From positions 682,001 to 746,000 of the forward strand of contig AP026139.1 of NCBI GenBank assembly GCA_030295235.1: 64,000 bases of DNA. The letters run 5' to 3'. The notes beneath the pieces were generated by a model, which made no database searches, was not told the origin of the DNA, and saw nothing but the letters and a program-made list of their open reading frames with translations. Below, one piece after another: positions 15,981 through 35,536 of the stretch. How positions within the stretch are numbered: position 1 is the stretch's first letter; each line of letters starts with the position of its first letter. The translations under genes were made by a program, and so were the position numbers. The DNA is from Fistulifera solaris. Lineage: Eukaryota.

Positions 15981-16279
15981 TGCGTTACCTACAATGAAGT
16001 TTTGCAGATAAATGAAAATTATGAGAAGAGTTACGTTTGTAAACTATTCGAATGAAAGTTTTCACAAAAGTCGATCTAATCGGAAAAGGACTCCCGCCGG
16101 TCGTGGGAGTTCAAGATTCAATTCCCACCAGTCGTGGGAGTTGTGATGTAGACTCCCACAGAGGATTCCCACACGGGTTCAGGATCCGAAGTGGGAATGT
16201 TATCCTTGGTCTCGGCCCGATAGGGTTAGAGGCCGTGATTCTTAACTGCATAAGGTTCAGGTTAATCCTGGGCATTGCA
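15981..16279 (-). repeat. 3' LTR
   Basis: TGCGTTAC...GGCATTGCA; no differences seen against 21013-21311. Confidence 0.97.
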
Positions 16280-16290
16280 TTCTGCCTCTC
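16280..16290 (-). other. Polypurine tract
   Basis: Minus-strand GAGAGGCAGAA directly abuts the 3' LTR. Confidence 0.8.
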
Positions 16291-16402
16291 AAGGTCCGGG
16301 AACGGACGAAGGACGGAATGTGGACCTTGCAGAACAAAACAGAAACAACCTTCCGTTTTAGAAGGAAAAAAATAAAAAGATCGGCTCCGAGAAGGGGGGT
16401 GT

Positions 16403-19400
16403 TCAGGAAGGAAATGGAGTTTCATCTCGAAAAGGCTTGATACGACGAATGGAGATTCGTTCAATGACAGCCTCGTTCAGTTGAATGGTGACGGTGCCAT
16501 TTGTGTGAACGCGAGTGATGGGAAAAGGACCGGTTGCGCGTGGTTCGAGCTTATTCGGTCGGAAGGATATTTTGAGGATTTTGTCGCCAGGTTGGTAATC
16601 GTGCAGCGAAGCGTTGTCGATTCTCTGCAATGGACCGTTTGTCAACGAGTTGTTGACGATGTTCTTGGATATATTTCCAGTCGGCCAAGAGGGGAATGTC
16701 GAGAATCATGTCGCGTCCGAAGGCCAAGGATCCTGGGCTGGCTTTGAGGGGAGCCATGTATGGCGGCGCGAGTTGCAAAAAGACAAGTCGATAAGGCGTA
16801 ATCAACCATGCGTTCTGCGCTCTGGATGTCTGTTGGGAGACGGGTAGATTGCATTGTTCGCAGGATGTTACCAACAGTTTGGTGCATGCGTTCGCAGATG
16901 CCATTCGAGCGTGGGTTTTTGCTTGTAATTGGGCGACCGGTGATGCCGTGTTCTTCGAGTAATTGGTCAAAGTCGTAGCCAACAAATTCGCCTCCTTGGT
17001 CAAAAAATGCAAAAAAAGCGGACGTGGGTAGCGGTTTAGCCAGACAATCTCCAATTGACGAGCGACGTGGGGCGGCGGTCTTGTTTTCAATGCGTATAAG
17101 TTCGACAAGGTTCGTGACTGTGTCAATGACTGTGAGTGCAGAGAAAGAGGCTTCTGTGTGGCCGACTTTCATGTGCCAAGGACCGATGAGGTCAACTGCA
17201 ATATCCCTCCAGGGATGGGAATGAGCTTCACGAGGAGCGAGATGACCATGGCCGCTGGAGGATGTTCTTGCACTTTGGCAATCTGCACAAATCGAAACAA
17301 AATGAGTAACGCGATCTCGGAGTTCAGGGTGGAAAAGGTGGATCGACATAGTCTCAATCAACCGTTTTTGTCCAATGTGGCCGAGTGCGAGATGATACCA
17401 GTGGATGGTATTGTTGAGCATGGAAGTGGGGAGAAAGATTTTGGGGTTTGTTTTGCCGTCTTTTGATAGCAAATAATGTGTGTGTCAGGTGCGAGTTCAA
17501 TTAGGGTGAAATTGCGAGGTGTTTTGGTTTGGAGTTGCGAGATAAGGACGTCTCCTTTCTGCTTTTCCAAGATGACGCGATAGTCTAGCTCGAAGGGAAT
17601 TCCTTTGAGCGCAGGAAGACTAACGAAGGTGCTCCGAAGGTGAGTATCATCAGCCATGGAGAAGAATGCCAGCTGGGGGCGGTGGTCGAGGGGTTTGAGC
17701 GCTATCCTCCCTCGTGTGTTTGGTGGGGTTGTTCGAACAGAGTGTTTTTTATGTCTTCGCCGGGCAATGACTGGATCGGCAGACGGGACAGGGCGTCGGC
17801 TAAGTTGTTGTCCTGACCCTTGATGTATTTGAGTTGGATCCCAAATTCGTCAAGGAAAAGACGCCAGCGCAGGACTCGCTGCGAATTCACTGTTTCAAAG
17901 GTGTTGTTTTTGTGGTCAGTGTACACATGTAATTGTTGTACTCCGTGAAAGCATCGTGCGAAATTCCTTGAGTGTTTCGACGATGGAGAGAATCTCCTTC
18001 TCACCGACTGTGTAATTGCGTTGAGCAGGATTAAGTTTTCGAGAGTAAAAGGCGACGGGTTTGCCGTCTTGGAAGATTGCAGCCCATTTGGTAGTCGCTT
18101 GCGTCAGCGTAGGACGTGAAACGGTTTGTTGTGGTCTGGATATTGAAGGAATGCTTCTTGTGCGAGGAGTGCTTTCATTTTGTCAAAGGCTTGTTGACAT
18201 TTGGGGTCCCATTTGAGCTTGCCTTTCATTCCGGTCATTTGTGTTAACGGTGCGAGGGATGTGTGCGCGTTTTGGATACATGTCGCGATAGAAGTTGACG
18301 GGCGCCAAGGAAGGATCGTAGCTGCTTGACCGTTCGTGGGGCTTGGATTCGGAGCATAGCATCGACTTTCTTCTTCCAGGGCTTAAGGCCAGTTGGGGTG
18401 AGCCAGTAGCCAAGCCAATCGGTTTCTTGAACACACCATTCGCATTTGTTTGGGTTAATGGTGAAGTTGTTGTCTTGCAGGACGGCCAGGATCTTTTCAA
18501 CAGATTGAAGATGCGATTCCAGGTCGTCGCTGAAGATGGCGATGTCATCAATGTAGACTTCGGCTTCGGAGAAGGGGAGGAGGAGTTCTTCCATTGTCTC
18601 TTGTGCAATATCGGGTGCAGGAGAGACTCCCATAGGAAGGCGATTGTATTGATAGTTGCCGAAGGGTGTGCAGATGACGCACAGTTTTTTTGCTGTCGTC
18701 GTCGAGTTCAAACGTGTAGAACTGCATACTGACGTCGAGTTTCGTCAAGTATTTGTATCCTTTAAGCGTCGTTTGAGGATGTCTTGAATGCGTGGTAAGT
18801 TGTATACCTTGCGTCGTAACACTTTGTTCAGCTGGCGGAAATCGGAAATCCATCGGACAGAACCGTCTTTCTTCGGGATAATGAAAGATGGAGCAAGCCA
18901 TTCGGAGGCACCCGTTCTGGTGAGTACGGTTTCCTTCGTAAGGCGCTCGAGTTCATTTTTGAAGACTGCCTCTTGTGATCGAGGGACAGGATAGGGTCGG
19001 CAGCGATATGGTTTTGCGCCGGGTTGGACTTCAAGACGGACTTTCTTTTTAGGATATTTGCCAAGCTTGCCAGAGAATAATTTTTTGAACTTGTCGAGAA
19101 TGCGGCCGGTAAAGCGGCGTTGCGGGCGACTAAGGTGTTCTTGTTCGTCGGGCGACGGTTTGGGTGTCGACTGCTTGATAGTCGGATGGGAGTATTACTT
19201 TGGACTTGTACCCTGCCTCTCTGATTGCATCTTCGTCATCTACGAGCATGGCATTGTGTGATTCAAGCATTTCTTTGCAGAACTTGTTGCGAATGAAGTA
19301 GTCGGCGGGTTTGAAGTCGATTGTGTTTTCGTTAAAAGAAACTGTTTGTTTTTCGAAGTCGATTTTGATCGCGAGTGCTTGCAGGAGATCTTGGCCAATG

Positions 19401-19718
19401 ATGATGTCGTAACCTGAATGTGGGTTATCAAAGATTGTGGCGCGATAAGGACCTGGAGCTTTTGCGATAGCGAAAATTCTGGAAGACAGATATTGGAGAG
19501 TAGAACTTGTTCGTTGTGGACCTGAGGTCCATGGAGACCAACAAATTGTTCACCTTTGATCTTGATCGTTTCGGTCCCTTTGGGAAGGGCTTTTCGATTG
19601 AACATTGTGCTGTCGGATCCGGAATCAAAAAGGACTCGAAAGAGGCGTTTGTCTTTAGAAGACGATAGCGTAGTGTATATAAGGCTAATAGAGCGCATGC
19701 GAGACGAGTTCGTATCAT
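16403..19718 (-). CDS. pol: Pol polyprotein (protease, RT, RNase H, integrase), split by many frameshifts
   Basis: VLFDSGS (PR); YNRLPMG...VYIDD (RT); VYTDHKN...NNLADALSR (RH); H..LGH...C..C, VDLIGP, NGICER, GPF (IN). Confidence 0.9.
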
Positions 19719-20035
19719 AGATAGAGCCTACTAATTTTAAATCACTGCCTTCTCCCTCGGAGAATATCTTGTCACATGCCGCTCACGAGAGCAGGCTCGT
19801 GTGATTCCAAGTTCTTAGACGTCTTTGTCTGGTTGACGAATGGAATGGAGTCAAGATGATGTGAGTGATTTAAAATAGTGGAGGTGACGTAACAATCTGT
19901 TAACGTACCCGACTCGTTGAGATCAAACTCATAAGCGGGGGAGCACGGCCGAATATGCCGGAGAGGTTGCCGAGAAGGCAGATGAATTGTCATTGTCAGT
20001 GGAAGCCATTTTGGAGATGACATTAGATTCGTTGT

Positions 20036-20969
20036 TCACGTCTTTATGTTTCTCGTTGGTATTGGCATCCTTGCCCTTGCCGTTCTTGTTCTTGGCGGCG
20101 GGTTTTTTGTTGGCAGATGGACGATCCGGGTTGTTGGCGTTCGAGAAGCATTTGCTCCAAGGGTGACCAGCACCTGGGTGGATGGGACAGTCATCTTTTG
20201 CTTGAACGGTTCTCTTTGCTTTTTTGTTGTCGTTGTATTTGTTGGTGTTTTTGGGCGCTTGTTGTTGTTATTGTCGTTGTTGTTGTTGTTGCTTTTGTTG
20301 AGGTTCTTGCGAAGGTTTACAGCTTCATCGAGTTCCTGGAGAGCTTTGAAATACTGACGGACTGTGAGGATGTCAACATCCGAGAGAGATTCGCGACCGG
20401 CAGTGATGAATGCTGCCTGCCAATCATTCGGCATTGCGTCGAAGAAGTACTGCTTGATGAATGCCTCAGGAAAGAGACAGTTGGGACCGGGAAGCCATTC
20501 AATGTACTGGTTGTACGTGTTCATGAGGCCGTAGAAGACCTCGGTTGGCATGCCTCGCGGTTTCTTCTTCTTGTGGATCTGGTTGACCAAATCGTGTTGG
20601 GTTTTTTCGTTGGCGTAGTGGTCGGCCAACCAAGCCATGACGAGGTTCTCAAACTTGGCGACGACGTCTTTTTTGCCCGTGGGGATGAAGTTCGTGATCG
20701 TGTTCCAATTTTCTTGATGGAACGGAGAGAGTGCGCTTGAACGCGATTGGTAGCGAAGCTTCGAGGTCGGTTTCGACAGTGACGACTTGGACGATTTCGG
20801 GGATGACAATGGTCACATGCTGCATGATCTTGCGAATGCCGAAATCGTTCAACAACGGAACAACAATTTCGTACTTGTTTTTCTTGATCATCCACTTGAT
20901 GGGGGTGCGATCGGTGGGGTCGAAGACATAAGCCCAGTCAGGAGTAGTAGTAGTAGTAGGAGAGGTCAT
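20036..20969 (-). CDS. gag: Gag, frameshifted
   Basis: ATG 43 nt inside the 5' LTR boundary; QYFFDAMPNDWQ; zinc knuckle CPIHPGAGHPWSKC at about 20148-20190. Confidence 0.75.
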
Positions 20970-21012
20970 TTTCTGAAAAAAATTTACGTAGGAATTTTTG
21001 CTCTGATCAGAA

Positions 21013-21311
21013 TGCGTTACCTACAATGAAGTTTTGCAGATAAATGAAAATTATGAGAAGAGTTACGTTTGTAAACTATTCGAATGAAAGTTTTCACAAA
21101 AGTCGATCTAATCGGAAAAGGACTCCCGCCGGTCGTGGGAGTTCAAGATTCAATTCCCACCAGTCGTGGGAGTTGTGATGTAGACTCCCACAGAGGATTC
21201 CCACACGGGTTCAGGATCCGAAGTGGGAATGTTATCCTTGGTCTCGGCCCGATAGGGTTAGAGGCCGTGATTCTTAACTGCATAAGGTTCAGGTTAATCC
21301 TGGGCATTGCA
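21013..21311 (-). repeat. 5' LTR
   Basis: Direct repeat of 15981-16279. Confidence 0.97.
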
Positions 21312-22138
21312 GACGGGTGTGTGACTATGATGTAACAATTTCTTTTTAATTTCACTTAAAACCAGGGTAAACCGTACCGATGCGCGATGCGCATGAGTGA
21401 GAAAACGAGCTAGGATGGTCATGAGTCATGAGGCAATTGATGAATCCCGTGTAGGAATTCCATGTTGTTAGGTTTCAGGTTGGATTGCTTTCGTTGTGTC
21501 TTTTTCTGCGAAGAACTGTAAACCGTGCGACGGACGGTCGTTCCACGAACTTGGGATTGGTTACCACTACGACCTACCTTACTTTGACACGACACACTCG
21601 ACATGACTCTAGATTATGAAGTAGTCTCGTATGGTGGGAGAACGTGTCACACTCGTGAATGACGTAAACATTCGGGCGCGCCAACATGCTGCTTCGAGGA
21701 CCAAGTCGAGGACCATAAGAATAGCTGAGACGCGATGCGCGATTGGGGTACTGTTGGAGTATCACTGCTCAACTCCTAACGTACCCAACGGATCAATTTT
21801 TCGTTGGCCCTTGTGTTGTACGGAGTACAAAAATACACAAATGTACGTGCACATGGAGAAGAAAGGGGGGGAGAAACTCGTCTTCGGCAAAAAATCGAAT
21901 GTTGTTGTTGTCGTTGTTTCGCATTAAATAAAAAACCCTTTACGCTTCGATTCATTCATTTGTTAATAATTGAACTCTACAATAAACAAGTTGTGGCAAT
22001 TCTATCAGTAGCCGCTTCGTTGATTGAAGTCAAATTCGTACAACATCGAACTCTAAAAACGAGCCTCCGTAGTGAAGCCCTTGCTTCTCGTTCGTCGCAT
22101 CATAGATTTCTTTCTTTCTCCGTTAAACGAACTGAAAT

Positions 22139-25100
22139 ATGACATTCCAAAGGAGCATATTCGCTCTCTTGGCCATGACTTGCTTGTCGTACGGCTTTAT
22201 TACACAAGATGGAAATGGATTCAAGGCGACGAGCGATGTGACCGAAACGTAAGTGCCTTCTGATGAATGAAGTTTCTCTTGACATACAAAATCTCATTTC
22301 GTACTCTTTCTTTCTTTCTTTCTTTCTTTCTCAAACAGAATGAACTTGGCACTCGATATACAAGCCATGCGTCTCGCGGGGAATGATTTTGCGGCCAAAA
22401 GAACATTTACGTCAATGGCACGAACGGAGGAGAGTTGACCTTGCAAATCTTGAGCAAAGGTGCTTCACGACGATGGCCCGATAGTCCCTTTTACAATATC
22501 TATCGACACGAATTCACAGTATTGGGACAAAAGAAGAACACGATACACTGGGAAACTTTGATGGGGCGCCCGCGGAAGAATATGCCGATCGGTTGGTCCT
22601 CGATTTGTTTGACTTGCAAGTGGAACACATTCAAGCGGAAGCCACCGTGATTCTGCACGTCATGATGGCTTACCTCAGTGAACTCTTTGACATGGTACAA
22701 GCATGCTATACCATTGCGGATGGAACATCCACCAATGTCAATGGTGATACCAACAAAATGCTCCTACTCCTCGATCAAGCGGCCGCTCTTTACGTTGGAG
22801 CCGAACAAACACGCGGTGAATCGACGGGTTTTCTTTTGTACAATTTAGCGCAAGTCACGGGAGCATTTTTTGGACAAGATACCGATGGCGTGGAAGTCAA
22901 AATCAATCGGTTGGTCATTGAACTCTTGCACAGTCTGCAATCCAAAATTAGTAGCGGGACGTGCGCCAGCATGGAGGGATACGTTGTCATTCGGGAAGAA
23001 GTCAAACTCTTGTTCAAATACGCCAACACGATTGTGGTACAAATGATGCTGCATCATATTCAGGAAGATACCGAAACCAAGGCGGATTTTGTCGAATTGT
23101 ACGCCTTGGCGCTCATGCCACAAATCTCCATTTGCGATGACGCGGCTCATGATCTATTACTTAGCTCGGTCGTCGGAGAAGGTCTCAACGATTCGAATCA
23201 AGCCACCGTGATCTCGACGCTGCAAAGTGTGTACGATTGTTTCAACATTAATTGTGAACTGGTGGGTGCCTACCAAGGTGACCGCCTTCCCGCCTGTAGC
23301 GACACGGTGACTTCCTTCCCTGCATTAGCGTCTTATCAACCGACCAAGGATGTACGCAGCAAATCATACATCGATCGAGATATTCGGCAAATGAGTATAT
23401 TCATGGCGTACGGAGACTTTAAGGCAGCGTATGATTGGTACCGATTTGGTTGGAACAGCAACGTCAAGTTAAGAGATTTTGCATTGAATGCAAAAGGCGA
23501 TTCCGTCGATTTGTATATGGAATATTTTACCGACGAACGATATTATCCCGACAACTTGCTGAGAAATGCCTTCCAGAAGAGTGCCCCTTTTCAAATGGCA
23601 TCCGATAAACAACGCGAAAGTTTGATCAAGGGTACCATTAACGGCATACTTATGTTTTGGGCCGTCGTCGATAGTTTAGATCAAGCGGGACAGAACTGTG
23701 ACGCCGGCAACGTCGACGCCGCTACCGAATATTGGGACACCGCTGCGGCATATTTTGTGGGATCTGCGGAAGGACAGGGACCAATGGGGGAAGATGGAGG
23801 CCAGTTTCTGTTTGGCGTCGCCAAAGACATGTGTACTGGTTTTGAAACCTGTGAACCCAATATTGGTTCTACTTTAAATGCTGCTGTGATGGCGTCGTTC
23901 AAGACCGGCAAGTCCATGCTGACGGAAGGTACCACCAACTGCTTTGGAGTGAAAGATCTCTCTGGAGACATGGTCATTGAAATTACGAAAATCTTAGTCC
24001 AGGCAACACTCTGGCACGCAGCACGAGTGTCCGAAGGTTTGGAAATGGCACAAGGTGCCCTTTTGGCGTATTCTCGATCACTACTTCCAGGCATTGAGGC
24101 TGCGAACCCTACAGCCGCCGCCACGATTGACAGCAATACCAATTACTTTTTCGAAGCCACTATCACAACCGACATGTCGGCTGTAGTGAATGCTTTTTCC
24201 CAGTCTTTGAGTCAGATGGAAATAAACTGTGCAGATATCGGGGACATTACAGTCAAAGGACAAACTGGCGGTGTTTGTGTCGGAGATCAATTCTTATCGA
24301 CACCAACGATGGCTCCAAATCCGGCCCCAAGTGTTTCCGCCCCACAATCTCCTTCAGCAGAATATCCTGTCGACTCTCCTGTTAATGTCGATTCGCCGAC
24401 GCGAGCACCTAATTTGCCTGAAAGTCGTGTTCCTATCTACATACCGGATGTGCACGAAGGCGGTCTTGCATGGGGACGCTATATGTTTTCCAACGAAACG
24501 ATTGCACAATCTGATTCTCTCTTCACTCTGGATATTCGAGATATGCACGATGCTCCGACTCCCCTGGATGCGCTGCTTGTCTACAATCAAACGTCAAGGA
24601 ACAGCGATGGACTGTCGCTGACTGGCAACTCGTCGATAAACAGTCTAAAAGAATTCAGCACCAAAGCATCAACATTCATGTCGCAGGATCCCATGTACAA
24701 TTTCTACAGGATTGCACTCTATGAGGATGAGGCTTTTGATGACGTCGTCAATGCCGCAGGATGGCCATTTGGAAATGCCGTGGTTGAGCTGGCCTTGGCT
24801 CCAAAGAATGGGAACGATCCTGTTTTAGCCTCTAAGGCAGCTGTGGTAATGAACATTTGGATAATGATCGTGCATCGGCTGTATGAATCCGCTCGACAGT
24901 GCAGAGCGAACTCTTGGTCGCCTCGGTGGATTGACTCGGCTGTTGCGCTCTGGATTGGACAGCAACAAGGAGAAGGAAAATACAACAGTGGATGGAGTAT
25001 GTACAGAGTCGCTCAAGATGCTGCCATGTTTTACGGGAATAACGAAGGTGAAGCAATATCAAACGGAGAAGTGCTCACTCTTCTGATCGCACTACAACAG

Positions 25101-28100
25101 GAAGGCACAAAATGTGACGGATCGTCTGAAACATACCTTTCTTACAAGTTTCTAGTCGACGAAACGATTCGTGTGATGTCCACTCCGCTCCTACAGAATC
25201 TTTTGTATCACATGAGTGAAGACAACTTTGAATACGTTGAGTTGTATGCCTTAGCCTTTATTCCGCAGGCGCTATCTTGTAACGAGGGTTGGTATTCTAA
25301 CTTAAGAGATTCGTTGTATGAGAAATTTGAGAGAAACACAAGAATCAATGAACCTTTCATCGAGATCTTTTCTGACGTTTTGATATGCCTAAAAATGGAA
25401 TGCTCAGACCTAGGTAACATATCTACTGCGGGCGCTTTTCTAAAAGACCTTGTTACTGGCCTATGTGGACGTTTGGAATCCGCTGCAACAGATAAAGTCT
25501 TGGCTGGATATGCAATCACAAGTTCTAACGGAGAGCTGGAACGCATCGATCTCGATATTCATCAGATTGAGCTCTTCATGCGAACATCCTCTTACGACTT
25601 AGCTAGCGACGTTTACGCAAATGGCCGCAATATGATAATCACAGGAGCCCGTAATCTGCACTCACTTAAGGACTTTACAGATGCAATTCCATCGATGAAT
25701 ACAGGGGGTCTCTTTCAAAAGTTCAAGTCGTACTCAAACGCTGACTCCGACAGCTTTATATCAGATCAAGCACTTTCTTTACTTGAGGGAGGTGATGGTA
25801 CTCGTTATGACGGTGCATCTCGGCGCCAACTTTCTGAAGCAATGCTCCGACATTCCCAGACAACTGTCGCTCTTTTATTGTTCGTCGGCAAGATGTATGA
25901 AGCTGTAGAAAAATGTGAAGAAGCAGGCGGACAGCAGCAAGTGGACGAAGCTGCGGCCTTCTTCATAGGGTCTATGGAAGGTCGACGTACGGGTGGTGAC
26001 ATTACCAAACATGGCAAGTTGATGTATGCTCTGGCAAATGAAATGTGTTCTTTCTTTGAAGAATGTACCAACAATGAAGAAGCCAAGAGCAATGAATTTA
26101 TTCTATTCGCTTTGAATGACTTAAAACAAGCCATCACCGAAGGCAAATGCGAGCAGGCAAAATCCAAATTGAAAGAAAGCATCATTCCGAATTTGTATAC
26201 CTCTACTATACAAGGAACGTTGCTTTTTGCTGAGATCAACTCTGAGTTGCCACCACAGACAGACAATGCTACTTTGGCCGCTGGCGATATGATCGCAAAA
26301 TCAATCTTGCCAGTGGTTGCAAACATATCATCCAGCAGTGCTGCTATAATAAGTGAAAATATGGAATTCAGTCGTAGTAACAAGCCTGTCAAGGATGGCG
26401 CCGAGGCTGTCTTCGATGCAATCGCATCTGTCTTGAATTCCACTGGTATTGGATGTTCGCAAATTGGTCGCTTGGTGTTTACTCCACTTGCAGTGTTGGA
26501 GATGAAGGCGAACAGCCGGATCCCGAAACGCCAACAAATCTCGGCAATGACCTTTACGTGACTACAACATATGTTCAAGACAGAGCGGAGATTGGTCTTG
26601 ATGTAAAGGATATGCTAGACTTGTTGAGTACCGGTGATCGCGAGGATCAGGCACTCCTTGTTTATCAGGAAGGAAGGCATTCAGATGTTTATGACAGCGA
26701 GGGCAGAGGGTTGACCTTCGGTCGCTAGGCGGATTTTCCTTAAGTGCTAACACGTCTAACCCACTATACACAATGGCGGTGTATGCGCTTCGAGGTCCAA
26801 ATGGCATATATCGTGACAGGGATGCTTGGCTATATGCGGATACTGTTGTTCGAGAATCGTTATCAAAGTCCACAATTGCTGCCGAAGCAGCTGTCGCGTT
26901 GAATCTTTGGATGGAGCTGGCAAGAGAGCTTTACAGCACCTTTACGCTGTGCAAACAAAGCAAAGTGACCGATGAAGATGGGATCCATTCCATTGACGAA
27001 GCGGTTGCGTATTGGATCGGTGATGGACAAATAGCTGGCGAATCCCAGAAGGGCCATCTTCTTTATGCACTTGCCGAGAAAATGGCTGAAAATTTTGGAC
27101 TAGACGAAGCCGGACAATCTAGGACCAACGTCAACATTTTGCGCCTCTTCCATGAGGCGAAATTAGAGGTTTCCTTACCCGGAGCTTGCAAGGATAGATC
27201 TGCAATCCATCGCGTTCGTCATGTGGTAAACAAAATTCTGTCACAAATGATCCTATTAAACATTCAAGCTTTAATCCATTATCTCCGAGTCAACGACCGT
27301 GATCGAGTATGGGTATATGCACATGGTGTCATTCCATTGATCGCTGGTTGTAGTCCGGCTGCATTCGAATATCTTCGACAAGAACTTCTTGAAGATCAAT
27401 ACTCTGCGAGTGATGTTGAAAGTATCATACAGCGCATTTATTCCGTTTTCCCATGTTTCGGACTCAAATGCGATGACATCGGTAAACATTCAACAGAGAC
27501 GACCTCGTCTTGCACCGATCCGCCAGCACGAACGCCGCTAGCAGGGTACAAGCCATACAGTGATGTTTCTGAAGAATCCAAAATAGACTTGGATATTTTG
27601 GAAATGGGCATTTTGATGGAAATGGAAGCTTACGAAGCTGCCGAAGATCTATACATTTACGGAAAGCATGTTTCTTCTGCGTCTGATGGAGGTCAGACTG
27701 CGTTGAGTTTGCAGTCTCTGGCTACTCTTTCCGACCGATCAAAGGCACCAGAACTTGAAGCCTTCAAAGTATACTTCGGCGGAGACGAGAAATACGCCGA
27801 TTCTATTATCGCTCCGCTGTTTTCTAGTGGCAGCAAGTACGACAAGACCGAGCGTCGGGTTATTGCTACCGGTGTCTCCCAATACCTGGTTATGTATGCG
27901 GCTATTTTGGATTCAATGTACGAATCAAATGAAAAATGCGAATCTTCTGACAAAAGCAATGTAGATGCCGCTATCCACTCGTGGGATAAAGCTGCAGCTT
28001 ACATCACAGGTCACCTAGAGGGCTACGATGAAGACGGATTGTCGGAGGGACTTTTCTTGTGGGGCCTGGCCTCGCAAAACTGCGAAGAATTCGGCACCTG

Positions 28101-28821
28101 CTCCGACGAAACACCAGGCTCGGCTATTGTTAATGATAGAATATCCACGATTCTTTACGCAGGTCGCGGTGCTATTCTCGGCGGCAATTGCGCTGAGCTG
28201 CGCAAAGCGAGATCCCAACTTATTCCTCTACTCCAGGCACCTCTTATTCAAGCATCATTGAGCTCTCTTTCCAAGCTCAATACAAGAAACGGTGCTTCGG
28301 ACTCTTTACTTCACGCTGAAGCCCATGTGCGTTCATTGGCGATCCTTCCATCGATAGCTGAGAAGGACCGGGGAAGTGCTGATATAATCAGCAAGAACAT
28401 GGGCATTGACAACACGGCTTTGGTTGATGGCGTCCCCGCCGTAGCGTCTGCGTTCGCCTCCTCGATAAGTAAACTTGGAATTGATTGTAACAATGTTGGA
28501 CAATCGAAGACAATTAACGCGTGCACAGGCGATGTGAAAGGAATGAGCACTGGTGCAATAATTGGAATTGTGCTGGCACTTCTTGTTCCGATTATTGCAG
28601 CATACTTCATCATTAGACGCAGAGGAAGGAAAAAGTCTGAAGAGCTTACAGCATTTGTGCCTCCTAAAGGCGAGTTCAACCACGAGAGCAACGCGGATTC
28701 GGAACCGGAGCAGCCCCGGTCAGACAGCAACGGCAACAAAGGGAATAGCGAGAACCCAAATTACACTATTTCTGACGACGACGATGACGGCGTAAGCACC
28801 ACCGAGCCCGATATCGTGTGA
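22139..28821 (+). CDS. Giant (~2,200 aa) type-I membrane protein with six FEA1/low-iron-inducible-like repeats; intron 22249-22338
   Basis: Signal peptide MTFQRSIFALLAMTCLSYG; in-frame GT-AG splice; six modules with IDLD-like and D.A.A[YFW].G motifs; TM GAIIGIVLALLVPIIAAYFII then RRRGRKK; needs small indel corrections near 22380-22400, 22530, 26468 and 26710. Confidence 0.75.
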
Positions 28822-29042: not shown

Positions 29043-29855
29043 TTATAGTTTCATGTTGAGAAGAAAGTCAGGGAATGAAACATCTACCTTTCCGCTGTCC
29101 CCCGGAACGCTCAGGGGTCTCGGTAGATTGATACATGATCCATTGTTTGTCAAACCGACGACGATATTAGAACAATCGAAGCTCACACCGCCGTTCTCAC
29201 AAAATTCACACGAATTACATGGGTAATCAGCCAGACTGACTTCACACCCGCACAAACTTGCGCTTTCAGCGAAGGCACTAGTCGCATTCGACTCATTCAC
29301 GGGCTCGTCCTCTCCCAAACAAACGTCAAAACCAAAGTTCAAAGTTCCAACATTGATCGGACCGATGCTTATATCCGCGAAGAAGACATTCTTCGTCAGA
29401 TATTGATCGTCGAAGTCCACAATCACTTCGAAGCCAGGCGTTGCGCATATTCTTCGCGTTAATGGGTCACATAACTCGTCCGTGTAAATCTCAACTTTAA
29501 CTTGTCTTTCGATCAAAAGAGGGATCAGCAACATGGTTTCGCAATTGATGGATCCTGTGAACTGGTCTTCCAGCAGTTTGCATGGTCGGAGCAAATCAAA
29601 CCACCTTGGCAATAAAGATAGCTGGCCGCCATCTGCATTATCTCCGTTTGAATCGCCACCATCGTCAACAGCATCGCCGCTTTCTTTCTTGGTGCTTTTC
29701 TTTTGAGCCGACGCGTCGGGTGAATTTCGAACAATATGGTTGAGCTTCCTTGCTGCACCCCTCACTCTTGATGCAGGCATGTCGTCGACGACTCCTCTGG
29801 CGCCAACAGCGAGCGCCCATAAAAGAGCCAGCAGACGATACAGCGTGGTTCTCAT
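29043..29855 (-). CDS. Secreted cysteine-rich hypothetical protein
   Basis: Signal peptide MRTTLYRLLALLWALAVGARG; CGCEV...CNSCEFC...FDCSN cluster. Confidence 0.65.
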   Translation of the reverse strand: MRTTLYRLLALLWALAVGARGVVDDMPASRVRGAARKLNHIVRNSPDASAQKKSTKKESGDAVDDGGDSNGDNADGGQLSLLPRWFDLLRPCKLLEDQFTGSINCETMLLIPLLIERQVKVEIYTDELCDPLTRRICATPGFEVIVDFDDQYLTKNVFFADISIGPINVGTLNFGFDVCLGEDEPVNESNATSAFAESASLCGCEVSLADYPCNSCEFCENGGVSFDCSNIVVGLTNNGSCINLPRPLSVPGDSGKVDVSFPDFLLNMKL

Positions 29856-30822
29856 TGTCAAAGGTGGTGTTATAGATCGATTAAAAAATTGGTCAGGATT
29901 TTGCACGAATTTCTATCTTTGTCATGACAAGAAGATTTGTGTCTCGTGTTCCATTCTAATTGGATCTTGTGAGCACATCGGTTGGGCTTCTTTACGACAC
30001 AATGAGTAATTAGTAATAATTACTTATTGCGTTACGAGAGTGATTTTCTCGTTAGCTACAGTAGAAAATCGATTTTTAAAAAGACTCCTCGCAAGAACCT
30101 ATAACATTATTTCAGTAGGCTCCCTTTCTTGAGCCGTGCCTTGCCGCTATAGTGCGAGTACCAGATAGTGGACCCTTGGTCACAAACAAAAAATCCTTTA
30201 CAAGACAACTGCTTGTTTGAAACGTGTAAGAAAGTTATCGTTGTTCACTTTTTACGTTTTTCTTCCAAGAAATCAATCATCTCGCCATCGCCCCCCGTTC
30301 CCCAAGCATGAACCATAGTGTAACGTCTCTCAGAGAATGATGTGGCATTGTTTAAGAGACAACGAGCGACAGTGTAGCACAACCAGCCACTCCCAGTTCC
30401 TTGTTTCTCATGCTGTTATTTCGATCAGTGTTGATCGACTGCCTGGTATCCATGTCAACCTAACTGCAGTCATATCTGTGTGATGCTGTCGCATCCATTG
30501 ACTTATTAAAAGGAAACTTCTTGGACACAGTCAAATCAATATTCGATTACCGCATTCGGAAACTAAACAAGCCCAGCAACTAGCAGGTTGAAGAATTCCA
30601 TTTCGTTGTACGAGTGAATCGTGAGGGGAAACCAAACAGAAATGTGTGAAGCTGCTTTCAGGACAGTCACTCATGAAGGAAATGTAAGATAATAATAACG
30701 CAAACAGGACTTCCATGAACTAAAACTTGTCGATATGACGAACTACATTTCGCTAACGATGTCAAACATGTAATTAAATACTTTAAACAAATTAAAACTC
30801 ATTTCTAATGCAAAATTGAAAT

Positions 30823-31599
30823 CTAATGAGAAATGTACCCCTGGTTGGCGTACTCCTTCATGGCGACACCGACCGGCTTGAAAAAGAAGGGCGTCTCCTC
30901 GACAACACCCAACTTGCTAACAAATTCTTGGAAGGCAAATGCTGTGATGGCAATCATGGCAAGACGTCCATTCTTAATTTCGTTGAGCTGCAGACGGCGT
31001 TGACCTTCCGGGTCCTTAGGGTACAGTCCCAAAGGATCGAATCCCAAGTTTCCAGGAAAGTAGTCGGCTTTCTTGGCTTGCGAGAAGCCGTAGGCTTCGA
31101 TGGCGGCGGCCGCCACTAAGCATACGACCCAGTACACGGGGCTGATCTTGCCCAAGCCACCGTTGAGAACGGAGGGAGCACGGTCCGTGGCGTCGACGAT
31201 CGAAGGAGCACCGAAGGTGGAGGCGAACTTTGTGTTGAAGAGTTCAGACATGGGCCATCCGGCCGCGGCGAGCATTGCCAAACGAGCGTGCTTGATTTCG
31301 GCTTCACGGTATTTCATGAGCGAGGCGTTATCCTTAGCGAATCCGAAGGGATCGAAGCCAACATCACCGGCGAGTGTTCCATCCAAAGCGATAGGACGAG
31401 TCATGAACGGAAGAGACTCTGACATTTTGGACGGAACAGGAATCGTGGGCACGCTTTCTTCTTGTGCGACGACAGGCTGTTCATTTTCAAGGGAGTCGGC
31501 CATGGCCAAATTCGTACTCTTCAAGATAAGCGACGATTGAGGAGCGAATGCCGAGGCACTGGCAAGACAAGTGAGAGTAATGGAGGCAGAAAACTTCAT
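30823..31599 (-). CDS. Fucoxanthin-chlorophyll a/c light-harvesting protein (possibly Lhcz type), copy 1
   Basis: ASASAFAP targeting motif; GFDPFG; REAEIKHARLAM; RAPSVLNGGL; EIKNGRLAM. Confidence 0.92.
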   Translation of the reverse strand: MKFSASITLTCLASASAFAPQSSLILKSTNLAMADSLENEQPVVAQEESVPTIPVPSKMSESLPFMTRPIALDGTLAGDVGFDPFGFAKDNASLMKYREAEIKHARLAMLAAAGWPMSELFNTKFASTFGAPSIVDATDRAPSVLNGGLGKISPVYWVVCLVAAAAIEAYGFSQAKKADYFPGNLGFDPLGLYPKDPEGQRRLQLNEIKNGRLAMIAITAFAFQEFVSKLGVVEETPFFFKPVGVAMKEYANQGYISH

Positions 31600-32458
31600 G
31601 ATTCTTGAATGTAATATTAATGAATGTGAATTAACAGCTGAAAAATTATGATCAGAAGAGAAATTACCTGGTAGTGAATGGATAAGAGAGGACGACCAGA
31701 GACCAGAGCAGCTGCTGATGTGTTGAAAGATGTGATGTCTTTCGAACACATCATCCGTCAAATCGTCCTCATTAATATTTATGTAGTGTACAAGTACTCC
31801 GAAAAGGATTCCGGAGCTCCTGCGACACAAAAAAGCGTTCCATTTAGAACCCTCAATCCTATTTTGCCAGGAATGCGTCAGAAATTGGAGCTGCTTGGTT
31901 GGAAAACGAGATCGTTCGAACGCTTTTTTCCATCGGGCAACTCAAAACTTTGCAAAAGGCGCGGTTTTCGTGACGTGTATTTTTGCCGACTGAGTCATCC
32001 GGAATCCCGACACGTCAGCAAAATGTCGACTCAACTTGATTTCAGTCCCGTCCAAAATCGGCCATTATTATTATTTACCACGGAGTAGGTCTCTAGCCGA
32101 CTTTGGCATCTTGCACTTGCGGGGGAGCTTTGACCGTACTCGCCCTTCCCGCAAGCGAGGGGCTCGGCCCCCGGAGGATAGCATCAGACCGGTCAACACA
32201 CAAAAATTCTGTTTGTTCCAGAAATTCTGGAGAGGGTGTATTTCCACGTTCCGCAAGCATTTTCGACATCAATAATCGAGTGCGCTGCAAATAATAATGT
32301 ATTAAATTCAGATGTTTTATGAGATGTATATAAAATCTATCATTGATACGTTTTGATGCTGTTGGTGACCATTTTCAGGTTTTCTTGTTTCAACAACATT
32401 TTGCTCCAATGCCATTGGTGACTTTCCCTGAACGCGGTATTCTACAGACGTTTTACTG

Positions 32459-33136
32459 CTAATTTGCGAATTCTTTAATCGCCGTAACTGCGAGTTGAAA
32501 GAAGATGGAAGTCGCTCGTACAACCCCATAGTCTGTAATGTACTCTTGAAATACAAAAGCCGTGATAGCGACCATAGCGAGCCGACCATTTCGGATTTCT
32601 GCCAATTGCATGTAGCGCTGACCGGCTTCGTCTCGTGGATACAGACCCAAAGGATCAAATCCCAAGTCACCTGGCAGTGCATTTGCTGTCTTAATCCTTG
32701 ATAGTCCGTACGATTCAATCCATGACGCCGCGAGTACCCAGGCTATCCAAAAGATGGGATTGATTTTGTTTAAAGTTCCATTCAAAATGGAAGGAGCACA
32801 GCCTGTTTCGTCGACAGTCGGTGACAGATGAAAATATTCAGCAATCTTTGGATTCAAGAGTTCCGACACAGGCCACCCTACAGCGGCCAGCATTGCCAGT
32901 CGAGCGTGTTTGATTTCAGCTTGACGATATTGATAAAGTGCCGGCTTGCTTTTCGAAAATCCCAGAGGATCGAACCCTCTGTCACCTGGATAGGATCCGT
33001 CAAGAACGGAATCACGGTCCATGGAAGAAAAAGACTGAGTAGAACGCTTCCATTGCGCGGCAGGAGAATTGTGAGGGGCAAATGCTGCTTTTGAACGAAC
33101 GGCAAGGATAAGCGCGATTAAGGTAGTCAGTTTCAT
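32459..33136 (-). CDS. Light-harvesting protein, copy 2 (diverged tandem paralog)
   Basis: AAFAP; GFDPLG; RQAEIKHARLAM; APSILNG; EIRNGRLAM. Confidence 0.9.
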   Translation of the reverse strand: MKLTTLIALILAVRSKAAFAPHNSPAAQWKRSTQSFSSMDRDSVLDGSYPGDRGFDPLGFSKSKPALYQYRQAEIKHARLAMLAAVGWPVSELLNPKIAEYFHLSPTVDETGCAPSILNGTLNKINPIFWIAWVLAASWIESYGLSRIKTANALPGDLGFDPLGLYPRDEAGQRYMQLAEIRNGRLAMVAITAFVFQEYITDYGVVRATSIFFQLAVTAIKEFAN

Positions 33137-33833
33137 TGTTGCTCGAGCTTTAGGAATGATTTTTGGTGTTTCTCAAAGTACTCTGTTTATCAGTTGTCGT
33201 TGTTGCTGTTGAAGTTCTTTTTATGAGACATAGAATCGCTTCGCTTCAACAAAGTTCATTTTACGAACACATTTATGCGATCGAGCCTCTTGTAGGTTCT
33301 CGAACAATTCAACTCCACAGCGTCGTTCGATTCGAACAGAAGCGCGCTCTCTTCATTTCTTCAGAATTTCATTGGGAAAAGGCGAACCTCAAGTCGTCCC
33401 GAACACATTCCAATATTTTGGTTTTATTCAATGACAAACCGCATCTCACGTGAAACATGGAGACAATCGACGAACGACGCGACGCGGAGTTCACGATGGT
33501 GTTCGGAGTTGCTCCAAAAGGTTAAGGCCTCGAACCAACAATAATCTGTTAGTACTACCGGTACCAGTACCGGTAGGAGACGTCCATGAAGGAAAACACG
33601 AGCTTCGAAATCGAAACAACAAAAATAATAATAATAATGGGCTACAACGAAGTTGATACAACGGCAAATCCAGAGCCTTAATGGAAACAGTAAAGATTCA
33701 CTTCGTAGTGAAGAACGATCACCGACATCGGAATGTGAAAACCTCGACAACCCGAAACAGCTTCTCTTTCGTTCCGTTCCCTCGTCTCTTGACATCGTTA
33801 CCTGGTGATCATTATTACAACCAACAACTCATC

Positions 33834-35536
33834 ATGCTGCTGTTGATAGTGCAGTTCCTTCTCCTCGTCGCTCGAAAGGAAGGATTCGCTTTGCTAACAG
33901 GAAGGCCATCTCGAGGGAACCATTTTTTCCCACAGAAAGAGTCACAAAGGTTGACATCTTTCTATTCTTCACTGCACTCGACAACATCGTCCTCACCATC
34001 ATGGGACGACTTTGATTATTTGCAACACTGGTATCCCGTGAGCTGGGCTTGTGACATTAAGTTGAACCGACCGACGCAGGTCAGTCTCTTTGACATGTCG
34101 TATGCTGTGGCAATCACTAAAACGAACGATACGCTTTCCGTGCTGGCCTATGAAGATCGGTGCCCCCACAGAGGTGCCGCTCTTTCGGAAGGACGTGTCA
34201 CGGAAACAGGGTATTTGCAGTGCGCTTATCACGGTTGGTCCTTTGATCAACAAGGCAAATGTGTCCAAATCCCCCAATCACCCGCGAAAAGTAGTCAATA
34301 TTCAACCCGTGCGTGTGCCAACGCTGTTCCAGCCATCCTTCATCAAGGTCTAGTATGGCTCTGGCCAGGTCCTGTGATCAATAATGACGTGACTTTGCTT
34401 CCCTCGCCTCCTTCAGTCCCCGAAATGGACGATCCGGCGTTCAAAGTGACACGGACGGTGCGGGATTTCCCTTGCATTGATTGGACTCTGTTGTTGAGCA
34501 ATATCATGGATCCGGATCATGGAATGTTTGCACACCAAGCTTCGGCGTTTGACATGTACTCGGCTTCTCCGGAATTTCAAATGCAAGTGGAGCAATCTTT
34601 TGACAGTGCGGGTTGGCAGATGGTTTGCAAAGTTCCAGCGCAAGAGAAATTGCGAAACAAAGATCGTATTTTACGCGGTCTTGGCACCAAAGCAATGCCC
34701 ACGAAAATCACTGGGGTAACCGCGTTTCATGCTCCCACGCATGTGACTATTTCACGACGGAATGAACAAGGAGAGACATCGTTCGTTACGGCTTTTTGGG
34801 TGTGTCCAACGGGAACTGGTCGTAGTCGATTCTTTTCCGCCGCCGTCGGCAAATTGCCGTTTCTACCACCCCGATGGTTATTTCATGCTTTATCGAATCA
34901 ATTTCTCGACCAAGACACCGTGCTTGTTGCATCACAGCAACCACCCGTTCTATTGGCAGAGGTCAAGTGCTTGGAAGAGAACAAACAGTCGATGCGACAA
35001 GGCTCCGCAAAAGTGGGAGCCCGCACGAATTTGTTTGTGTACCAAAGTCCCACCGATCGATTGGTGCGACTAATTGGTAAGTATCGATGTTTGTCTTTTC
35101 TAATCCTGTCATTGACAGTCCGTCTCATTGCCTCCAAGATACCTTTTGGGATGCTACTCTGGCCAAGGCGCCACGTCGATCGGAAACGTTACTGTCCATG
35201 AAAGCGACTGGGCTGTTAAAATTCATTCCTCCACGACATGTAGTCTTAGATAGGCAAGAACAACACCTCGATATTTGTCCTGACTCACAGGATACGGTGC
35301 GCAATTGTGAGTTCATCAAACGAACAAGCTTAGTCGTGACGGCAGCTTGGGTTTTACGTACATTTCTGAACAAGAACGTAAACGCCCGAATGTTTTGGTG
35401 GATTCCAGTTTTGTTCTCTGGCGCGGGTTGGTCGGCCGAATGGATTCGAAAGCAATTTTATTACAACCACCCGGAAGCAAACCGTGATAGAGATCTGAAA
35501 AACATTCCTAAGAAAATGTGGTTGGATCCAAAATGA
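33834..35536 (+). CDS. Rieske non-heme iron oxygenase (PAO/TIC55/PTC52 family); intron 35077-35138
   Basis: CPHRGA...CAYHGW Rieske motif; N..DPDH...H iron site; C-terminal HLDICPD; hydrophobic leader. Confidence 0.88.

Follow-up and report, generated by a model that had tools for sequence, protein, structure and literature searches.

The locus at 22139-28821 on the forward strand of the window, the whole 64,000-nucleotide stretch of Fistulifera solaris DNA analysed here (assembly GCA_030295235.1, contig AP026139.1, positions 682,001 to 746,000), raises the question of whether a series of interrupted reading frames represents one gene, several genes or a decayed remnant, and of what its product might do. 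Two long stop-to-stop frames are present on this strand (22485-26561, 1,358 aa; 26695-28821, 708 aa), and short ORF pieces, also on the + strand (22139-22249, 22340-22435, 22387-22647 and 26381-26725), join both into one reading. We found that this region is a single gene on the + strand, with 2 exons and one 90-base intron. Exon 1 (22139..22248) starts with the ATG at 22139, encodes a signal-peptide-like N-terminus and the first residues of the first module (A1), ends in phase 2, and is collinear with residues 1-37 of a 2,197-aa F. solaris protein, the homeolog P0001. The predicted 90-base intron (22249..22338) has the form GTAAGT...CAG with a TTTC-rich tract, and its removal restores the reading ...SDVTE-T-MNLALD..., which matches P0001. 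Read contigs cross 22249-22338 unspliced, and are therefore silent on splicing and expression. Several homolog gene models begin at a Met directly after the intron, which suggests that these models probably missed exon 1. Exon 2 (22339..28821) ends with the stop codon at 28819-28821 and contains four sites at which the assembly is without one base.

These four sites appear in the assembly as frame changes near 22396, 22528, 26473 and 26704, each of which is the effect of one absent base. Contigs from 4/4 public runs, which come from one study and possibly include the assembly's own source data and are thus not organism-independent, add one base at each of the four sites, and contradict the assembly exactly there. 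At 22396 (+), adjoining an AAAA run, all four runs add an A behind 22396; in run X4 one contig carries this A, and an alternative version has a T behind 22400. At 22528 (+), which also adjoins an AAAA run, an A is added in 4/4 runs at full depth. At 26473 (+), adjoining GG, the added base is a G behind 26473 or, in another version, a C behind 26476, and both versions together account for all depth in 4/4 runs. At 26704 (+), an A is added in 4/4 runs at full depth.

The encoded product is a type I membrane protein of 2,198 aa, with a signal-peptide-like start, six modules of ~330 aa in the order A-B-A-B-A-B, a single membrane-spanning helix and an acidic tail of 68 aa, all encoded on the + strand. 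The N-terminus (MTFQRSIFALLAMTCLSYG...) was judged signal-peptide-like by eye, and is likewise hydrophobic in complete orthologs. Module A1 (22208..23321) spans the intron and the first two assembly errors, and is followed by B1 (23322..24284) and by a Pro-rich linker between the first and second pairs (24285..24431, residues 601-650 of the 1,358-aa frame). Modules A2 (24432..25484) and B2 (25485..26500, spanning the error at 26473) form the second pair, from which a short acidic linker with some Pro (26501..26551) leads to A3 (26552..27531, spanning the error at 26704) and B3 (27532..28530). The Pro-rich linkers that had been described between all pairs are therefore found once, in the first linker of about 50 aa, and not in the second, which has about 17 aa and 3 Pro. 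The single transmembrane helix and short acidic tail of the initial annotation were located at 28552..28614 (GAIIGIVLALLVPIIAAYFII), where homologs are also hydrophobic, and at 28615..28818. This 68-aa cytoplasmic tail is basic at first, continues with ..AFVPPKGEFNH.. and an acidic stretch, and closes with ..DIV.

The modules repeat far beyond chance. AB pairs align to one another at E 3e-56 and 2e-47, and in each of the 15 pairings of module profiles the homology extends over nearly the whole length (hhalign probability 97.1-100%). Profile comparisons gave 5e-43 to 3e-53 between A modules, 3e-56 to 2e-62 between B modules and 6e-11 to 2e-26 between A and B, confirming the six homologous modules in strict alternation, (AB)3, that had been proposed from the letters. 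Every motif quoted for the two types was also recovered: DQAAALYVGAEQ, DSAVALWIGQQQ and DEAVAYWIGDGQ plus V..YA....P...C for type A, and WDTAAAYFVGSAEG, VDEAAAFFIGSMEG and WDKAAAYITGHLEG plus C..F..C for type B. Each of the six modules contains 6 Cys, and the protein has 10 N-x-S/T sequons, consistent with an ectodomain.

Could this reading frame nevertheless be a decaying pseudogene, its four frameshifts real, or three tandem two-domain genes? The four frame changes of the uncorrected window are what a pseudogene would display. However, the extra base is present at every site in the contigs of 4/4 runs, all four shifts are in the same direction, and three of them adjoin a run of the added base (A or G). 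The corrected coding sequence, 6,597 bases for 2,198 aa, has zero inner stops and is 94.4% identical to the homeolog over its full length with 1 gap, which makes real decay highly improbable. A set of three genes is, if anything, even harder to credit. Proteins with a single pair, of about 730-780 aa, do form a large class, but the present frame has neither a stop nor a start signal nor a signal peptide between its pairs, and a membrane anchor follows the last pair only. Exactly three units are present in 27 complete proteins, and the transcript-derived ortholog of Amphora coffeiformis has an ORF marked complete at 2,195 aa. The locus is thus one intact protein-coding gene of a Fistulifera-type raphid diatom, and it appears broken solely through single-base omissions in the assembly. 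This validated the earlier reading of the ORF fragments as one protein of ~2,200 aa broken by indels, and the indel correction that had been proposed as a check revealed no real stops. Since the omissions make the gene look broken, the homeolog in the window has probably been missed or split by gene callers; its annotation is corrected here to that of an intact gene.

The initial annotation had assigned the protein to the Fea1 family. Pfam Fea1 (PF07692, low iron-inducible periplasmic protein) has a gathering score of 25 bits and a profile of 359 positions. The homeolog P0001, 94% identical to the window protein, scored 48.2 bits, above the 25-bit cut-off, which was also passed by 10/10 scanned homologs (32.8-131.8 bits), and the uncorrected pieces of the window scored 22.3 bits, slightly under it. 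When the modules of the window were scanned singly, A1, A2, A3 and B2 gave no Fea1 match (A2 alone having no Pfam match), and B1 (13.3 bits, E 0.044) and B3 (20.9 bits, E 2e-4, profile positions 25-246 of 359) gave sub-cut-off matches, B3 being the module closest to Fea1. In homolog P0007, A1 covers profile positions 3-341 of 359. Among one-pair relatives, the halves at the A and B positions both match Fea1, with matches at E<=0.001 in 32 of the 44 members. A Pfam scan of 44 members at E<=1 found Fea1 in 36 and every other family in 1, and the nearest named Atlas clusters are Fea1. Taken from the homeolog and homolog scores, the family assignment appears sound. The direct matches of B1 and B3, the mutual homology of the modules and the matching of both halves in relatives together mark all six modules as Fea1 domains. 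A sub-cut-off match to DALR_1 (16.8 bits) was taken as chance.

AlphaFold2 models were obtained for the pair AB2, composed of A2 and B2 (pLDDT 89.6, pTM 0.92), and for B3 (pLDDT 93.2). Both consist of helices with just a few strands of 2-4 residues, suggesting an all-helical fold in which each domain would be a helical bundle, and the confidence scores of the AB2 model suggest that the AB pair is a rigid unit. Canonical transferrin lobes have a mixed alpha/beta fold. The 'lobes' that had been proposed for this protein are thus not transferrin-like in their predicted fold, and Pfam Transferrin had no match in any scan, whether of window pieces, modules, homologs or the 44 members; together with the all-helical models, this ruled out a canonical transferrin identity.

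Among solved structures, a search with the P0001 sequence returned no relative at E<=1, and an alignment-profile search gave only a chance match to deoxyribose-phosphate aldolase (E 0.047). Foldseek with the AB2 model gave no match at E<=0.001. VIA-align gave a best Z of 7.2 for AB2 in a wide search and 8.2 for B3 (8.5 at a second look), with matches to generic four-helix bundles (PsbQ, talin/vinculin, b562 fusions) in the chance range for helical models. The all-helical predicted fold is therefore not claimed as new. Imelysin 3n8u, IrpA-like 4ecg and ICMP 7xrx are bacterial proteins that are also helical-bundle, iron-associated and periplasmic, and were ranked first, fifth and seventh by Foldseek for the B3 model (E 0.055-0.34, probability 0.15-0.35), the top row being imelysin 3n8u at a non-significant E of 0.055. 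DUF4856 was an Atlas lead (0.89). However, imelysin-like proteins were absent from the VIA-align best 50 in both B3 runs, and neither the imelysin-like Pfam families (Peptidase_M75 / IrpA) nor DUF4856 matched any of the 44 members even at E<=1, so that the imelysin/DUF4856 lead was left unconfirmed.

Proteins of one, two, three and four pairs exist among the relatives, the ancestral unit being the A+B pair. The form with three pairs is an old one that raphid pennate diatoms have conserved. Its named holders are Fistulifera, Mayamaea, Seminavis, Amphora and Nitzschia sp. Nitz4, the last of which we take to be non-photosynthetic; all are raphid and benthic or coastal, and no oceanic, iron-starved species is among them. 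Residue conservation was counted over 78 modules (six from each of 13 orthologs). Four Cys, two Gly and one Pro are invariant (78/78 modules for each), and a polar set is conserved as D in 74, Y in 73, D in 77, N in 76 and Q in 74 of the 78. One further position is Q in 36/39 A modules and E in 36/39 B modules. Oxygen-donor residues (Asp, Tyr, Asp, Gln or Glu, Asn, Gln) are thus kept across the six domains. In the tail, the motif GE[LFMV][NST]H is found in 29/35 homologs, and 34/35 end in V or I. NPxF is present in some ortholog tails. A plastid-type Phe follows the signal peptide in the window protein and P0001 and is unconserved in orthologs, and plastid targeting was dropped.

The published systems closest to this protein are compared here from excerpts of the papers cited. 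A review assigns PF07692 to ISIP2A and states that it binds ferric iron (PMC7966952), and the Phaeodactylum tricornutum protein, ISIP2a/pTF, is likened to the window protein by this shared Fea1 domain and by its published description. In pTF, a signal peptide is combined with a C-terminal membrane anchor, and the cytoplasmic C-terminus carries an endocytosis motif; the protein resides at the cell surface and is endocytosed (PMC7972479). The window protein has Fea1 domains and a C-terminal anchor too, and its tail carries conserved motifs of putative role. The two differ in that pTF is small, about 58 kDa as derived from an 84.7-kDa APEX2 fusion (PMC7972479), against about 2,198 aa here, and its published description gives it a C-terminal Fea1 domain (PMC4855317), against six in three A+B pairs. 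ISIP2a has been shown to bind iron, to depend on carbonate and to be iron-induced, whereas the window protein is known from sequence and models. A profile search for named ISIP2a relatives returned 14 proteins, none informatively named. In Ot-Fea1 of Ostreococcus tauri the Fea1 domain is likewise duplicated and accompanied by a signal peptide and a C-terminal membrane helix, and the protein is iron-loaded in cells (PMC4855317). However, this green-algal protein has two domains, which group with green-algal Fea1 domains, unlike the diatom three-pair protein with its long conserved tail. Chlamydomonas reinhardtii FEA1 and FEA2, the founding Pfam Fea1 members, are secreted and low-iron-induced (PMC7966952); both are soluble in the periplasm and comprise about one domain, with neither a membrane anchor nor repeats.

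The same design principle of many iron-binding domains per C-terminal membrane anchor is followed in Dunaliella by multidomain membrane-bound transferrins, for which binding of up to 10 iron atoms is stated (PMC10372677). However, their domains are genuine transferrin domains that share neither sequence nor fold with the all-helical models of the window protein. ISIP2a itself is called convergent, and Dunaliella p130B, considered as a possible multi-domain Fea1 protein, proved not to be one, as it consists of beta-propellers related to ISIP1 (both PMC10372677). In the literature searched we found no characterised six-domain Fea1 form. The possible novelty that had been raised for the six-module architecture was nevertheless not upheld, since Lelandais et al. 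had reported in 2016 that the Fea1 domain was multiplied several times independently, in even numbers from 2 to 10 (PMC4855317), which also places the present protein within a known kind. These even numbers fit the A+B pair unit described here, and the excerpts consulted mention neither the alternation of A and B, nor its age, nor the tail motifs. The protein is a new, uncharacterised and conserved member of a known iron-uptake family.

By analogy with this family, from which the iron part is drawn, we consider it rather probable that the protein is an (AB)3 Fea1 surface protein that captures dissolved ferric iron at multiple sites and whose tail directs export and endocytosis. It would be located at the cell surface and capture dissolved ferric iron like FEA1, Ot-Fea1 and ISIP2a (phytotransferrin). 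Given the oxygen-donor residues conserved in all six domains, one chain may hold several iron ions, three if there is a site per pair and six if there is a site per domain. Tripling of the pair would provide more capture sites per membrane anchor, extended away from the membrane, and the tail would direct export and endocytic uptake as described for ISIP2a.

The same architecture might instead perform a different job, with another ligand (metal, anion or polymer) or a role in adhesion or the extracellular matrix of benthic raphid diatoms, and with a conserved tail that links it to trafficking or to the cytoskeleton and not to the uptake of iron. We regard this as a distinctly less probable but serious alternative. 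The named holders are all raphid and mostly of benthic genera, the A-type modules are too diverged to match Fea1 alone, and a scan of 12 neighbouring frames showed no iron-related one. The E-box CACGTG, a putative iron-responsive element of Phaeodactylum promoters for which our literature search found no paper, has 4 matches in the window, none of which lies within 21000-22139 upstream of the gene. The role of Chlamydomonas Fea1 has also been called a matter of debate (PMC4855317). However, the characterised Fea1-domain proteins named in the literature excerpts consulted are all tied to iron, the hard oxygen donors are conserved family-wide and in all six modules, and the Fea1 match is specific, as no second Pfam family recurs among the 44 members.

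A more specific version of the iron-capture reading, which we put forward tentatively, is that in this branch of the family the A+B pair of diverged Fea1 domains would be the working unit instead of the single domain, and that the three-pair proteins of raphid diatoms would form an old and distinct class of endocytic iron receptors with multiple sites and their own cytoplasmic sorting code. This putative code would comprise, in this order, xPxF, GE[LF][NS]H, an acidic stretch and a final [DE]-x-[VI]; in relatives with one pair, a bare hydrophobic, GPI-signal-like end would serve as the anchor. The pair is predicted to be rigid (pTM 0.92), and a conserved site position that is Gln in A and Glu in B distinguishes its two halves.

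Many algae take up scarce ferric iron without reduction mainly through Fea1/ISIP2a proteins, and our searches of solved structures returned none of this domain. With six Fea1 domains on one anchor, the protein described here is a natural test case for the number of iron ions that a single Fea1 domain, or a pair, binds. As a conserved six-domain protein, it also bears on why these domains come in twos, and on the tail signals that may drive uptake.

Stop-to-stop reading of the gene at 22139-28821 gave two long forward-strand frames, 22485-26561 (1,358 aa) and 26695-28821 (708 aa), besides several short ones. From the ATG at 22139 a stretch of 36 codons, hydrophobic at its beginning, runs up to GTAAGT, and a 90-base intron ends in CAG at 22336-22338, with the splice in frame (AC joined to A). 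We infer that this intron is real; the public sequencing runs, which are DNA-like, carry one unspliced contig through it. After the intron the reading shifts frame four times, near 22396, 22528, 26473 and 26704, each time in the direction expected for one missing base. All five pieces are collinear with P0001, a 2,197-aa Fistulifera solaris homolog ('hypothetical protein FisN_24Hh058' in the source), at 94% identity. Gene models of the orthologs (P0002, P0003, P0005, P0010, P0016 and others) often begin at the post-intron Met (MNLALD...) or further in, and so are without a signal peptide. The first small exon of the orthologs seems often to have been overlooked, which suggests that the intron position is conserved.

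Five public runs were found, and four of them, from a single study, contained 77-86% of sampled words and were compared as contigs. These four may include data behind the assembly itself, and they behave as DNA. At each of the four frame-change sites the contigs of all four runs insert exactly one base: an A behind 22396, 22528 and 26704, and a G behind 26473, for which a second version has a C behind 26476. One further insertion, an A behind 22054 and so upstream of the gene's start, was present in three of the four runs, the fourth having no depth there. The initial annotation had read the locus as one gene interrupted by apparent indels, and the inserted bases confirm this: the breaks in the reading frame are not real. 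With the four bases restored by script, the coding sequence has 6,597 bases, no inner stop and 2,198 codons for amino acids, and the corrected protein aligns with P0001 over its full length at 94.4% identity with one gap. Three of the four in-gene sites adjoin a run of the inserted base, A or G. Over about 7 kb the assembly is short of single bases at five places (22054, 22396, 22528, 26473 and 26704), and four of the five adjoin such a run of the inserted A or G. Other genes of the same assembly may be split likewise.

In the runs the locus occurs in two versions whose DNA differs by about 8-9%; one of them is identical to the window. In the run contigs the two versions showed 0 and 38 differences over 442 bases (23177-23618), 0 and 43 over 521 bases (26976-27496), and 0 and 30 over 378 bases (27625-28002). 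Two homeologs within a single genome would account for this; F. solaris is allodiploid. The homolog protein search did not bring up the window's own protein at full length, and this homeolog is probably absent or fragmented in public annotation.

The corrected protein consists of a signal-peptide-like start, modules A1 and B1, a Pro-rich linker of about 50 aa, A2 and B2, a short linker of about 17 aa, A3 and B3, a single membrane helix and a 68-aa tail; its ectodomain carries 10 N-x-S/T sequons. Identity between the AB pairs is 26.7% (E 3e-56 and 2e-47). We split 13 full-length orthologs at their module borders and compared the resulting profiles pairwise. E-values were 5e-43 to 3e-53 for A with A, 3e-56 to 2e-62 for B with B, and 6e-11 to 2e-26 for A with B, over 272-326 aligned columns per comparison. 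The alternation of A and B is therefore strict and real, which bears out the earlier proposal of six homologous modules in (AB)3 order. The cysteine count is exactly six in all six modules. Across 78 modules (13 orthologs, six modules each), four Cys, two Gly and one Pro never vary, and strong conservation was also seen for the Asp of the opening L-D motif (74/78), a Tyr (73/78), the Asp of a D-x-A-A-A motif (77/78), an Asn (76/78) and a Gln (74/78). One position splits by type, with Gln prevailing among A modules (36 of 39) and Glu among B modules (36 of 39). None of the modules appears degenerate.

Against the Pfam Fea1 cut-off of 25 bits, the 708-aa frame of the window scored 22.3 bits, just under it; B3 alone scored 20.9 and B1 alone 13.3 bits, and the Pfam scan gave no Fea1 match for A1, A2, A3 or B2 taken singly. 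All ten scanned homologs passed the cut-off, with 32.8-131.8 bits, upholding the assignment to Fea1 first proposed. The best Fea1 stretch of the Amphora protein is module A1, covering profile positions 3-341 of 359. In the alignment of one-pair proteins 32 of 44 members matched Fea1 at E<=0.001; the best stretch lay in the first half in 5/12 proteins and in the second half in 7/12, and 7/12 had two stretches. One module therefore corresponds to one full Fea1 domain, and by these matches the family as a whole clearly is Fea1.

An exhaustive protein search with pair 2 (680 aa) matched 923 representative proteins at E<=0.001, a number that falls to 398 at E<=1e-10 and to 130 at E<=1e-30. We ran an AB-pair profile over all fetched proteins, dropping 10 near-identical cluster members. 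Among proteins that start with Met and are made only of full units, 39 had one AB unit, four had two, 27 had three and one had four. Named holders of the three-pair form (F. solaris, Mayamaea pseudoterrestris, Seminavis robusta, Amphora coffeiformis and Nitzschia sp. Nitz4) are all raphid pennate diatoms; the centric Pseudictyota dubia has a 2,858-aa relative and Stephanopyxis turris an 803-aa one. Long runs of single-type Fea1 domains in place of alternating pairs were seen in P0087 of Paulinella micropora (4,250 aa; 12 matches, all to the B part of the AB profile) and in P0048 (2,885 aa; one B-like piece, then about eight A-like domains).

A FastTree tree of 91 units, with SH-like support only and no inferred root, sampled 18 of 27 three-pair and 22 of 39 one-pair proteins, and took in every one of the four two-pair proteins as well as the only four-pair protein and the three window units. 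Units clustered by position: first units formed one clade (18/18, support 99), as did third units (18/18, support 99), and 16 of 18 second units grouped together (support 96), the other two standing unresolved beside that clade. A split with support 100 set first and second units apart from a group made up of the third units and 21 of the 22 one-pair proteins. Because units group by position, the tripling is older than the divergence of these genera. The four-pair form arose when unit 1 was copied once more; the two-pair forms are nested inside three-pair clades and are thus losses or incomplete gene models. P0040, a 2,200-aa three-pair protein of Nitzschia sp. Nitz4, a non-photosynthetic diatom, has long branches and a divergent 126-aa tail lacking GE[LF]NH.

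Tails were compared in fetched proteins of 2,000-2,900 aa, 35 of which extend by more than 20 aa beyond the last hydrophobic segment (7/35 being near-identical cluster members); in a further five the hydrophobic segment is the very end. The motif GE[LFMV][NST]H occurs about 15-25 residues past the membrane helix in 29/35 tails, or 22/28 by hand count once near-copies are removed. The C-terminal residue is Val or Ile in 34/35, the residue two positions before it is often acidic, and in some proteins NPxF directly precedes the first tail motif. The window protein reads ..AFVPPKGEFNH.. and ends ..DIV. A C-terminal valine can mark a protein for export from the ER, and NPxY/F can mark one for endocytosis. 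Most one-pair proteins show, by eye, a bare hydrophobic end that follows small residues and resembles a GPI signal.

AlphaFold2 predicted pair 2 (44 aligned sequences) as nearly all helix, with mean pLDDT 89.6 and pTM 0.92; the high pTM of the pair suggests that A and B would be held in a fixed arrangement. B3 alone gave pLDDT 93.2 and pTM 0.92. No solved relative was found by sequence search, and fold searches returned only generic four-helix bundles, the best at Z 7.2-8.5 over about 100-130 residues, a level that helical models reach by chance according to the search tool. The first Foldseek rows for B3 were bacterial imelysin-like iron-associated proteins (3n8u, E 0.055; 4ecg, 0.33; 7xrx, 0.34), and Atlas gave DUF4856 as a lead (0.89). 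VIA-align and Pfam lent this link no support, and we treat the putative kinship as a lead only. A transferrin fold was rejected on the almost wholly helical models, and 'lobe' in the initial annotation, if meant as transferrin-like, does not hold; ISIP2a and transferrins have been termed convergent (PMC10372677), in agreement with a non-transferrin fold here.

Just upstream of the gene lies a retroelement integrase fragment (Integrase_H2C2, 16642-17484, reverse strand), and GC skew is strongly positive (0.18-0.24) over 16000-22000. The convergent neighbour at 29043-29912 (reverse strand) is a 289-aa frame that begins like a signal peptide and is rich in Cys in its C-terminal part; no Pfam match was found for it. 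Beyond it are two tandem chlorophyll a/c-binding (light-harvesting) genes (30823-31941 and 32459-33172, reverse strand), adjoined by a Rieske/pheophorbide-a-oxygenase-type gene (33657-35201, forward strand).

The locus is one intact gene for six Fea1 domains in three pairs, with a single anchor and a conserved tail. Repeated, independent multiplication of Fea1 domains, in even numbers from 2 to 10, was already published by Lelandais et al. in 2016 (PMC4855317) and repeated in a review, so that the novelty first suggested for the architecture was overstated; the twelve B-like domains of P0087 exceed this published range. In the accessible parts of the literature covered, which included few subscription journals, we found no characterised six-domain Fea1 protein, A/B pair unit, age for the tripling or tail motifs.

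ISIP2A, which carries the same Pfam domain, binds ferric iron (PMC7966952); ISIP2a is surface-located and endocytosed, with a C-terminal endocytosis motif (PMC7972479), and the two-domain Ostreococcus tauri protein Ot-Fea1 is iron-loaded inside cells (PMC4855317). As the main alternative, this architecture could serve a different ligand or role, which we consider less likely than iron capture. This would accord with the lack of an iron link specific to this protein, with its unrelated neighbours (two light-harvesting proteins, a Rieske/PaO oxygenase, a glycosyltransferase, a desaturase and Tdp1) and with named holders that are benthic or coastal diatoms. By analogy with its characterised relatives, we favour, with some reserve, iron capture: the six-domain protein, uncharacterised and new to description within the known Fea1 family, would capture dissolved Fe(III) at the cell surface, may offer three or six iron sites per chain, and would be taken up by endocytosis via its tail.
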